Assembly: GCA_029560465.1 (NCBI GenBank)
Contig: JAKQKX010000069.1
Location: forward strand, 6,447-70,446
Direction: 5' to 3'
DNA: 64,000 bases
Source: Candidatus Omnitrophota bacterium
GTDB taxonomy: Bacteria > Omnitrophota > Gorgyraeia > Zapsychrales > JANLHA01
Both the position numbers and the translations under genes were made by a program. Under the pieces are notes generated by a model. That model did not search any database. It saw nothing but the letters and a program-made list of their open reading frames with translations, and had not been told where the DNA came from. Below, in pieces: positions 37,549 through 39,953 of the stretch. Every line of letters starts with the position of its first letter. Position 1 is the stretch's first letter.

Positions 37549-39953
37549 GATTATACGCTGGAACATCAATACAATTTATAGAAGATACTGTCCAAAACCA
37601 AATTGCCGAAAAATTAAAGCAAGCCTTTTTCTTTTATTACAGATTTAATCCTTCGCCAGGAGAGGTTAACTCCTGGCGGAATTCTCTCCGCTCGATTTCT
37701 CAAGTCTTTGAACATGCTCAATTGTTAGATCATGGTGTCATCTTAGAATATCAATTGCCGATGACATCCAGACGACTGGACTGTATGATTTGTGGCCAAG
37801 ATACGGAACGCAAAGACAATGCTGTTATTGTCGAGCTAAAGCAGTGGGAAAAATGTGAAGGCTCGGATGGTGATAATGAAGTTACAACATGGCTTAATGG
37901 CAGGAAAAGGGATGTTCTACATCCTTCGGTTCAGGTGGGGCAATATAAGCTATATCTTCAAGATACGCATACAGCTTTTTATGCTGGTTCTAATCCTGTC
38001 AACTTGAACGCATGTACTTATTTGCACAATTATTCCCATGATGCCCACGATGTTATCTTCGACGATAAATTTACTCCCAGCCTCGAGAGATTTCCTTTGT
38101 TTACGGCAGATGATGTCGACAGAATGATTGACTACCTAAGGATAAGGCTTAGGAATGGACAAGGCAGTGATGTTTTAAATCGAGTTGAGAAGAGTAAATA
38201 TCGGCCTTGCAAGAAACTGATGGATCATGTAGGTAATCTTATCAAAAACAAAAAGGAATACGTTCTTTTAGATGAGCAGCTAATAGTTTATGATACAGTT
38301 TTGACTTTTGCCCGCAAAGGATTCCATGACAAAAAGAAAGCTGCCATCATTATCAAGGGGGGCCCCGGGACAGGGAAATCTGTTATCGCAATAAACTTGA
38401 TGGCAGAGCTTCTCTTAAAAGGATATAACGCTCATTATGCAACGGGATCCAAGGCTTTTACTGAAACGTTAAGGAAGATTATTGGGACAAGAGGAGCGAT
38501 TCAGTTTAAATATTTTAATAGTTACATGAATGCAGATAATAATGCCGTTGATGTGCTGATTGCCGATGAAGCTCATAGAATTCGAACGACGAGCAATAGC
38601 CGATTTACAAAAAAGGAAAATCGTTCTTCATTAAGCCAAATCGAAGAGATTATGAATGCCTCAAAAGTCTCTGTATTTTTTATAGATGACAATCAGGTTG
38701 TAAGACCTAATGAGGTTGGCTCAACGGAATATATTAAGCAATATGCTCTTGAGAAGAAAGCGAATGTTATTGAATATGAGTTAGAAGCCCAATTTAGATG
38801 TAATGGTTCCGAAGCTTTTGTGAATTGGATTAACAATACTTTAGGGATAAAAAGGACAGCCAATGTCATTTGGGATCGACACGAAGAATTCGACTTTAAA
38901 ATATTTTCTTCTCCTGAAACATTAGAAGCTGCCATCCGTAATAAGGTGCAAGAGGGGCATACTGGAAGAGTAACTGCTGGATTTTGTTGGAAATGGTCTA
39001 ATCCTAGACAGGAGGGGACACTACTAGAGGATGTTGTGATTGGAAATTACAAACGTCCATGGGATGCAAAGCCCGATGCCAGAAAATTGGCCCCGGGTAT
39101 TCCCAAGGCTTCTTTGTGGGCCTATGATCCAGCCGGTATTGACCAAGTCGGATGCGTATATACGGCGCAAGGATTTGAATTTGATTATGTCGGTGTCATT
39201 TTTGGTGAAGATATTATTTATGATTTTGATAAGCAAGCATGGATTGGTTTAAAGGAGAACTCTGCAGATGAAGTGGTGAAGCGTAGCAAAGATCAGTTTG
39301 TGGAGCTGGTAAAGAATACTTATCGCGTGCTTTTAACGAGAGGGATGAAGGGGTGCTATGTTTATTTCATGAATAAAGACACAGAACGATTTTTTAAGTC
39401 AAGAATTGAAGGCATGATGTCTGAGGATTCTTTGATGTTTTCCGAAGTCGCTCAACAAATTGAGGATAATAGGGTAGGGGGGGTTGTGAACCAAATTGAG
39501 GAATCTTTGCGTTTTAAAGAATATTTACCAGTTTATTCTTTGGCTGCGGCATGTGGCCGTTTCGGTGAAGGGCAAGAAGTTTCCCCTTTAGGATGGATGA
39601 GAGTTGATACAGGACGCCGTCTTAATCGCAATATGTTTGTTATTAAAACAGTTGGTTTGTCAATGGAGCCAAGAATTAAAGACGGATCTTATTGTGTCTT
39701 TCAGGGTAATGTGGTTGGATCGAGGAATGGGAAAATCGTATTAGTTGAACTGCGGCAGGATGCTGATCCCGATACCGGGAGATATACTATTAAACGTTAC
39801 TCCAGCCGAAAAGTATTCGGTGATGATGGTCAATGGAAGCACGAAGAGATTATATTGGAGCCATTAAATAGTGCTTTTGACAAAATTGTTTTAAACGGAA
39901 ACCAGGATGGTGAATTAAAGGTTGTTGCAGAATTTTGGGACATTGTTGGGTAG
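37545..39953 (+). CDS. DUF2075-family (Schlafen-like) P-loop ATPase fused to a C-terminal LexA/S24-type peptidase domain
   Basis: Walker A IIIKGGPGTGKSVIA. Walker B-like VLIADEAHRI. C-terminal GLSMEP (Ser nucleophile, nt about 39660) and downstream TIKRY (Lys general base), as in LexA/UmuD GDSMxP ... TVKRL. 802 aa. Confidence 0.65.
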   Translation: MRLYAGTSIQFIEDTVQNQIAEKLKQAFFFYYRFNPSPGEVNSWRNSLRSISQVFEHAQLLDHGVILEYQLPMTSRRLDCMICGQDTERKDNAVIVELKQWEKCEGSDGDNEVTTWLNGRKRDVLHPSVQVGQYKLYLQDTHTAFYAGSNPVNLNACTYLHNYSHDAHDVIFDDKFTPSLERFPLFTADDVDRMIDYLRIRLRNGQGSDVLNRVEKSKYRPCKKLMDHVGNLIKNKKEYVLLDEQLIVYDTVLTFARKGFHDKKKAAIIIKGGPGTGKSVIAINLMAELLLKGYNAHYATGSKAFTETLRKIIGTRGAIQFKYFNSYMNADNNAVDVLIADEAHRIRTTSNSRFTKKENRSSLSQIEEIMNASKVSVFFIDDNQVVRPNEVGSTEYIKQYALEKKANVIEYELEAQFRCNGSEAFVNWINNTLGIKRTANVIWDRHEEFDFKIFSSPETLEAAIRNKVQEGHTGRVTAGFCWKWSNPRQEGTLLEDVVIGNYKRPWDAKPDARKLAPGIPKASLWAYDPAGIDQVGCVYTAQGFEFDYVGVIFGEDIIYDFDKQAWIGLKENSADEVVKRSKDQFVELVKNTYRVLLTRGMKGCYVYFMNKDTERFFKSRIEGMMSEDSLMFSEVAQQIEDNRVGGVVNQIEESLRFKEYLPVYSLAAACGRFGEGQEVSPLGWMRVDTGRRLNRNMFVIKTVGLSMEPRIKDGSYCVFQGNVVGSRNGKIVLVELRQDADPDTGRYTIKRYSSRKVFGDDGQWKHEEIILEPLNSAFDKIVLNGNQDGELKVVAEFWDIVG

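Follow-up and report, generated by a model that had tools for sequence, protein, structure and literature searches.

A LexA/UmuD-type S24 peptidase module at the C-terminus of a DUF2075 helicase, and its possible role as a damage-responsive switch on restriction and defence enzymes

A nuclease-helicase with an appended peptidase module

The stretch of DNA analysed here, called the window below, is 64,000 nucleotides long and belongs to a Candidatus Omnitrophota bacterium (assembly GCA_029560465.1, contig JAKQKX010000069.1, positions 6,447 to 70,446). It encodes a protein of 802 residues in which a putative nuclease domain and a helicase core of the DUF2075 family are followed by a linker and by a peptidase module of family S24. 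The gene lies between those for a MazG-like pyrophosphohydrolase and an HNH endonuclease, and Table 1 gives the features of the protein and of its surroundings. An S24 domain at the C-terminus of a DUF2075 ATPase had been predicted earlier from the DNA letters, and both families were indeed matched, with the scores given below. The span of that original prediction, 39450-39953, corresponds to residues 636-802 plus the stop codon, and takes in the linker and the whole S24 module.

Table 1. Features of the 802-residue protein and of neighbouring genes (window coordinates)
Feature	Position	Strand	Remarks
802-residue multidomain protein	37545..39953	+	Nuclease (putative), DUF2075/SLFN-type superfamily 1 (SF1) helicase, linker, S24 self-cleaving module (predicted)
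N-terminal domain, putative PD-(D/E)xK nuclease	37545..38264	+	Residues 1-240; E40, D79 and E97-x-K99 invariant
DUF2075 / Schlafen group 3 helicase core	38337..39368	+	Residues 265-608; PF09848, E value 9e-91
Linker	39414..39476	+	Residues 624-644; low confidence, poorly conserved; predicted local distance difference test (pLDDT) <50; gappy, variable columns
Cleavage-site region (predicted)	39522..39563	+	Residues 660-673, YLPVYSLAAACGRF; predicted scissile bond Cys670-Gly671 at nucleotides 39552-39557
S24 catalytic core	39591..39944	+	Residues 683-800; nucleophile Ser706, general base Lys750
MazG-like nucleotide pyrophosphohydrolase	37201..37548	+	115 residues from ATG 37201; mechanical open reading frame from TTG 37141
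HNH endonuclease	39956..40663	+	235 residues; Pfam HNH, E value 0.004; PHROG HNH families, E values down to 1e-9
AbiEi/AbiEii	34962-36495		Just before the operon; PADLOC, E values 2e-86 and 2e-70
PDC-S63 (DUF6933 + PRiA4_ORF3), PDC-S01 (AAA_14 + DUF4143, E value 6e-99), Fic-HTH protein	40796-45513		Just after the operon
TraC/VirB4-like conjugation gene	20995-23769		Upstream; type IV secretion
Coupling protein	27756-29486		Upstream; type IV secretion
Tyrosine integrase	30016-31251		Upstream of the operon
Insertion sequence (IS) element	33511-34565	-

The PF09848 match covers profile positions 1-352 of 354, and the Walker A (GGPGTGKS, residues 272-279) and Walker B (DEAH, residues 341-344) motifs are invariant in 52 homologs. 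Foldseek returned SF1B-type helicases as the best matches of the full-length AlphaFold model, namely SLFN11, Dda, RecD2 and Dna2, with the eukaryotic SLFN11 ahead of the others. Profile and predicted structure thus confirm the core as a member of the PF09848 DUF2075 / Schlafen group 3 helicases. For the N-terminal 240 to 260 residues no match was found in Pfam (even at an E value of 10), in NCBIfam or by profile against the PDB sequences. The residues listed for this domain in Table 1 are invariant across the same 52 homologs, and the full-length model places D79 and the ExK motif on three predicted strands after a helix (alpha-beta-beta-beta). Judged from motif and predicted topology alone, residues 1-240 are a putative PD-(D/E)xK nuclease.

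A nuclease joined to a DUF2075 helicase is the architecture of Nhi and of 'Nhi-like' proteins, as described in 10.1101/2022.05.11.491447. Like these anti-phage proteins, the 802-residue protein combines an N-terminal (putative) nuclease with a PF09848 SF1 helicase and is encoded in a defence island; unlike them, it has a MazG-like partner and a C-terminal S24 domain, neither of which is mentioned in that description. The PADLOC Nhi model matched with an E value of 4.7e-15, only over residues 236-471 (profile positions 178-377 of 470), and the AbiO model likewise matched the P-loop half (E value about 1e-15). The enzyme can be called Nhi-like by its architecture, on which others have based that label, while these matches do not establish that it belongs to the Nhi family; an anti-phage role is suggested by its gene context.

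Identity, predicted cleavage site and distribution of the S24 module

Pfam PF00717 (Peptidase_S24) matched residues 692-791 with 26.9 bits, above the curated cut-off of 23.3 (E value 4.1e-6), and the CI-type repressor family PHROG 4 matched residues 658-796 (E value 1e-7). A search of the PDB sequences with the single sequence of residues 626-802 returned nothing relevant. When a profile built from 28 homologous C-termini was used against the PDB sequences, 17 of the 19 matches at an E value of 1 or below were UmuD or LexA, including all of the top 16 (best E value 0.016). In these alignments GxSM falls on the Ser60 motif of UmuD and T-V-K on Lys97, with Ser and Lys in register. Alignment of the module by hhalign gave a probability of 95% with UmuD (E value 2.4e-8) and of 94% with LexA (E value 1.7e-7), the GMSM and VKR motifs of LexA pairing with Ser706 and Lys750; the key stretches of the E. 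coli UmuD and LexA sequences used for this agree with the PDB profile alignments. The AlphaFold model of residues 645-802 had a pLDDT of 92.1, and the top 37 PDB matches of this model in Foldseek were all LexA, UmuD or lambda CI (best E value 3.3e-6), followed by signal peptidases with far weaker scores.

The module is thus confirmed as a genuine LexA/UmuD/CI-type member of S24 by every sequence criterion and every predicted-structure criterion tested. A chance match to the motifs was ruled out by fold, profile and conservation evidence. We also rejected a repressor of the LexA/CI type, because no helix-turn-helix (HTH) family matched anywhere in the 802-residue protein and its N-terminal 620 residues consist of the nuclease-like domain and the helicase. 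Structure prediction, suggested at the outset for the domain pair, gave a confident model of the S24 half (pLDDT 92). In the full-length model (pLDDT 79, predicted template modelling score (pTM) 0.53) the linker between helicase and S24 is of low confidence, and S24 is not docked with confidence on the rest of the protein.

Conservation of the active site was followed in homologs. A search of 5.8 billion proteins yielded thousands of relatives, of which the best 120 are 61-100% identical; a precomputed PF00717 match exists for 114 of these 120, and the 115 that are at least 780 residues long served as the conservation set. The catalytic pair had been placed in GLSMEP (residues 704-709, nucleotides 39654-39671; Ser706 codon tca, 39660-39662) and in TIKRY (residues 748-752, nucleotides 39786-39800; Lys750 codon aaa, 39792-39794), which agrees with their alignment on S60/K97 of UmuD and on the LexA motifs that hold S119 and K156. 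Replacement of Ser or Lys in close homologs, named beforehand as evidence against the idea, was looked for and not found: Ser706, Met707 and Lys750 are invariant in all 115 full-length homologs, and Gly704 is kept in 114. Of 150 representatives of other architectures with the same module, all have the Lys and 149 have the Ser. The S24 domain is, on this evidence, very probably catalytically competent.

The module shares with UmuD, LexA and lambda CI (MEROPS S24) the fold and a Ser-Lys dyad set in GxSM and (T/V)(V/I)K motifs. It differs from all three in what it is attached to: there is no HTH, and the cargo N-terminal of the cut would be a 620-residue nuclease-helicase in place of a repressor domain or the short UmuD tail. 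It further differs from LexA and UmuD by a conserved 11-residue insertion (S754...H766) after the strand of the catalytic Lys (residues 754-766, window 39804-39842), in which S754, K756, W764 and H766 are conserved. This insertion is present in all architectures that carry the module and absent from LexA and UmuD, and it marks a distinct S24 subtype.

A cleavage site, which did not figure in the original prediction, could be proposed from the hhalign alignment with UmuD. This alignment begins at LPVYSLAAACGRF against FPLFSDLVQCGFP of UmuD, and places AAC670-G671RF on VQC24-G25F, so that Cys670-Gly671 falls residue for residue on Cys24-Gly25, the bond that UmuD cuts. The natural scissile pairs of the S24 family are Ala-Gly and Cys-Gly. 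Across the 115 homologs the consensus is L-x-A-A-(A or C)-G-x-F, with Ala (97) or Cys (18) at P1 and Gly at P1' in 92; in the 150 representatives P1 is Ala in 110 and Cys in 36 (146/150), and P1' is Gly in 134. Most members have A-A-A/C at P3-P1. The predicted Cys-Gly or Ala-Gly pair lies about 35 residues upstream of the catalytic Ser, and since it is in the same chain, enzyme and substrate would be in cis, as in LexA. By analogy with these relatives, the module probably cuts its own chain at Cys670-Gly671.

Although the domain fusion had been treated as a single odd case, this did not hold: proteins that end in this S24 subtype make up more than 500 clusters (50% identity). With the module profile, 2,443 of 1.84 billion cluster representatives were matched at an E value of 1e-3 or below, 1,573 at 1e-10 or below and 506 at 1e-30 or below. 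The profile scores about 18 bits on LexA and UmuD, against 170-280 bits on its own subtype. The best 150 representatives range from 158 to 1,969 residues, and the module is almost always at the extreme C-terminus. Pfam scans of the 71 among them that are at least 330 residues long gave as partners ResIII (19), DUF2075 (15), Type_ISP_C (10), DEAD (7), Eco57I (6), MZB/DUF1998 (6), N6_Mtase (4), AlwI (3), SWI2/SNF2 (3), MmeI methyltransferase (2), HNH_4 (2), GIY-YIG (2), TnsA-like (2) and several STAND nucleoside triphosphatases (NTPases). Typical chains, from N- to C-terminus, are DEAD, Helicase_C, MZB, restriction-endonuclease domain and S24 (YprA-like); an MmeI-type methyltransferase with target-recognition domain and S24; N6_Mtase, Eco57I, Type_ISP_C and S24; and ResIII, SNF2 and S24 (Type III/SNF2). 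An HTH was found in only 5 of the 79 shorter representatives; others have Mrr, DpnI-like, TnsA-like or GIY-YIG domains or fragments of the enzymes named above. Going by these domain matches, the subtype is attached chiefly to restriction and defence enzymes that target DNA, and rarely to HTH repressors.

The distribution of the module on the DUF2075 enzyme itself was examined in the species genomes of GTDB, scanned with a full-length alignment. At least 597 loci, in Bacteria and Archaea, encode a relative of the core at 47-69% identity, and one near-identical Omnitrophota genome has one at 93%. Counts of S24 and of neighbouring genes refer to the best 80 of these loci. About 20 of the 80 carry the S24 domain, and the remainder end near residue 622-640. 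One such S24-less homolog (P0118; 627 residues, 75% identical, found on 10 contigs) stops at ...SRIEGQKQE, where the linker begins; no S24 remnant was found downstream of it, and the MazG-like gene is still upstream. Mapped on a neighbour-joining tree built from 78 cores, the S24 domain must have been gained or lost no fewer than 9 times. Two Patescibacteria homologs (L045, 3001-5274; L050, 903-3191) have a different, classical UmuD-like S24 (VGC/GD, GDSM, IKE) in the same position, and because another S24 type was thus acquired independently, a module of this kind appears to be selected for at the C-terminus of the core. Judged by its distribution, the S24 module is an add-on and not part of the enzyme.

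At loci of the S24-less homolog (L009, 3453-5884; also L010 and L011) the MazG-like gene is immediately preceded by an additional gene for an XRE-family HTH protein, which may provide an alternative, transcriptional control; at L009, genes for a Dcm-type methyltransferase and Vsr come after. At two further loci the pair is broken: in L012 (3854-4265) an in-frame stop codon in place of Trp684 separates S24 from the helicase, and in L093 (3971-6441, a Halomonas sp. PA16-9 replicon) a frameshift splits DUF2075 from S24. These splits represent either decay or sequencing errors.

Possible consequences of self-cleavage

LexA, UmuD and CI rest in a non-cleavable state, and binding to a filament of RecA on single-stranded DNA (ssDNA) drives the cut. 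Many restriction enzymes of restriction-modification systems are constitutively active and guided by methylation, and self-restriction during DNA damage and repair is their known liability. With these precedents in mind we favour, at a probability of about 0.4, a reading in which the module shuts the enzyme off under DNA damage. At rest, the module would sit intact on its flexible linker and the enzyme would work. As RecA-ssDNA filaments accumulate, through DNA damage or recombinational repair, the module would be driven into its cleavable state, and Ser706 and Lys750 would cut the chain in cis between Cys670 and Gly671. This would free an S24 core of about 15 kDa (residues 671-802) and leave the enzyme as a chain of 670 residues with the new end ...SLAAAC-COOH (for most homologs, ...AAA-COOH). 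The new Ala-rich end would act as a LexA-like ClpXP C-degron and the enzyme would be removed, the net effect being a built-in 'restriction alleviation' that spares the repairing chromosome from the cell's own DNA-cutting defence. The steps are not equally secure: that activated RecA is the trigger comes close to an even chance by analogy with the relatives, and inactivation of the enzyme through its degradation is the more tentative step.

Several considerations led us to prefer inactivation. Many carriers of the module are constitutively active restriction enzymes, which need restraint rather than activation. In LexA and its like, a ClpXP C-degron adjoins the scissile bond, and the enzyme here would end in ...AAA or ...AAC. 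Finally, restriction alleviation by ClpXP is a known solution for EcoKI. According to PMC5742171 (citing Neher 2003 and Niu 2010), LexA and LexA-like proteins have a ClpXP C-degron directly before the cut, which destroys the N-terminal fragment. According to PMC11109961, alleviation of EcoKI restriction after DNA damage depends on ClpXP. The proposed logic is the same, a damage-linked proteolytic shut-off that spares the host chromosome. It differs from EcoKI in that no protease domain is built in there and a stalled HsdR complex is recognised, whereas here a self-cleaving domain would act in cis and the link to ClpXP is drawn by analogy.

A number of points weigh against this reading. Self-cleavage, what sets it off and what becomes of the fragments are proposed throughout by analogy. 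In 21 of the 115 close homologs A-V-A-T replaces A-A-A/C-G, with Ser and Lys kept; Gly at P1' is essential in LexA, and these homologs may therefore not cleave there. AlphaFold puts the scissile dipeptide in a predicted helix (residues 666-675) and not in a LexA-like strand-loop. An Ala-rich P3-P1 is also preferred by the S24 active site, so that it is no independent evidence for a degron. The conserved insertion could bind a trigger other than RecA, and some LexA-like proteins, such as IrvR (PMC7101444), cleave without RecA. As for the taxonomic range, S24 is present in 0 of 11 archaeal and 20 of 69 bacterial homologs among the best 80 loci (Fisher p = 0.057), which is weakly suggestive of a dependence on bacterial RecA, the contrast not being significant and the loci not being phylogenetically independent. 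Within the A-V-A-T subclade, P2 Val and P1' Thr covary (residues 668-671, window 39546-39557).

The same structural evidence for a competent, predicted self-cleaving module would also serve an activation switch. Here, S24 would autoinhibit the enzyme or hold it as an inert dimer, and filaments of RecA or of a phage recombinase on phage ssDNA would trigger a cleavage that frees the active enzyme to destroy phage or host DNA, making the module an infection sensor, as the original prediction proposed. UmuD is a precedent for activating cleavage, and Nhi, the DUF2075 defence enzyme that has been characterised, works on replication intermediates of phages. Carriers of the module also include STAND NTPases and helicase-nucleases of infection-sensing systems. 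We nevertheless consider activation, though it is the main rival, rather unlikely. Homologs of 75% identity that end cleanly before S24 are found in operons that are otherwise alike, so that the core without the supposed inhibitor cannot be lethal, although this variant has gained the XRE-HTH gene upstream. Further carriers are the classical methylation-guided enzymes of the Type ISP, MmeI-like and AlwI kinds, which need no infection sensor, and the full-length model, with its disordered linker and a pTM of 0.53, offers no confident inhibitory contact.

Cleavage may also be beside the point. In LexA, CI and UmuD the C-terminal S24 domain serves for dimerisation and for binding to RecA, and the structures of RecA complexes 8gms, 8gmt and 8trg are among the fold matches of the module; together with an A-V-A-T subclade that may be uncleavable at the canonical site, this would suit a dimerisation or RecA-filament docking domain with no regulated cleavage, which would join two enzyme molecules or bring the helicase-nuclease to ssDNA coated with RecA. 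Such a role is improbable, being hard to sustain because the dyad and GxSMEP are almost absolutely conserved in the 115 homologs and the 150 distant representatives and the A/C-G site is present in 134 of the latter. We give a similarly low probability to self-cleavage that is not set off by RecA, in which the insertion would sense a phage protein, a nucleotide or the stalled or translocating enzyme itself, and to cleavage in trans, for example of the MazG-like protein. The S754/K756/W764/H766 insertion, absent from LexA and UmuD, and the existence of RecA-independent LexA-like proteins such as IrvR (PMC7101444) speak for the former, and the conserved MazG-like partner for the latter. A trigger other than RecA is opposed by the archaeal homologs, with no S24 seen in the 11 among the best 80 loci. 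A predicted site in cis is present, and the MazG-like gene is equally conserved beside S24-less homologs, which is why we regard it as an unlikely substrate of S24.

If the module does act as a switch, its bearing would extend beyond this locus. How bacteria protect themselves from their own DNA-cutting defences during damage and repair is mechanistically understood for very few systems, the main one being the ClpXP-dependent alleviation of Type I enzymes. A built-in, RecA-responsive self-cleaving domain would be a simple and portable form of alleviation or, equally portable, an infection sensor; the principle would span many enzyme classes and phyla, and would offer engineering a ready-made, damage-inducible switch, off or on, at the protein level. 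Repressors with S24 domains of the CI and SetR types, and CapH/CapP of CBASS, also couple a RecA/ssDNA signal to the control of mobile elements or defence. They act transcriptionally, through a separate repressor, whereas here the sensor is fused to the effector and its action would be post-translational. It is conceivable, at somewhat less than even odds, that a mobile LexA/UmuD-like subtype has been recruited repeatedly as a C-terminal plug-in switch, in at least 500 clusters of restriction endonucleases, helicase-nucleases, methyltransferase-nuclease fusions and STAND proteins, wiring the activity or lifetime of DNA-targeting immunity to the RecA/ssDNA signal. A literature search with little reach into subscription journals, by which absence is not proven, found no paper on the DUF2075-S24 fusion, on the module of MazG-like protein and DUF2075, or on S24 domains of restriction enzymes, and S24 goes unmentioned in a recent survey of YprA helicases. 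The composite architecture has been noticed in database annotation, some homologs being entered at JGI as 'DUF2075 family protein/phage repressor protein C with HTH and peptidase S24 domain'. Both parts are known; their combination appears to be undescribed and seems to stand for a general regulatory principle.

Operon and genomic setting

The MazG-like gene (Pfam PF12643, E value 4e-20; PHROG 3301 pyrophosphatase, E value 1e-18) overlaps the start of the 802-residue gene by 4 nucleotides. It lies directly upstream of the homolog on every metagenomic contig examined and at 54 of the 80 genome loci. It is a constant partner with or without S24 (loci L001-L012), in bacteria as well as in some archaea. 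The HNH gene behaves differently: L001, L003 and L004 have a similar gene after the homolog, L002, L005 and L007 do not, and one was found at 2 of the 80 genome loci. HNH was accordingly rejected as an obligatory third component and is taken as a variable neighbour. No Pfam match was found for the N-terminal 175 residues of the HNH protein, and a 'faint' SAD_SRA flag on its homologs could not be confirmed.

The operon is flanked on both sides by genes of known or predicted defence systems (Table 1). Because conjugation genes and an integrase lie upstream, this defence island appears to ride on an integrative conjugative element. Another cluster, at 161-14277 of the window, encodes an N6-adenine methyltransferase, a specificity-subunit-like protein and a protein of 1,380 residues with NERD and two protein-kinase domains, besides two large open reading frames (563 and 1,816 residues) without a Pfam match; the cluster may represent a defence system with kinases, Pgl/BREX-like or of another type. 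At 56947-62838 the window encodes a secreted-type protein of 1,963 residues with FG-GAP repeats and laminin-G-like, GH5 cellulase and PKD domains, which is unrelated to the S24 finding.

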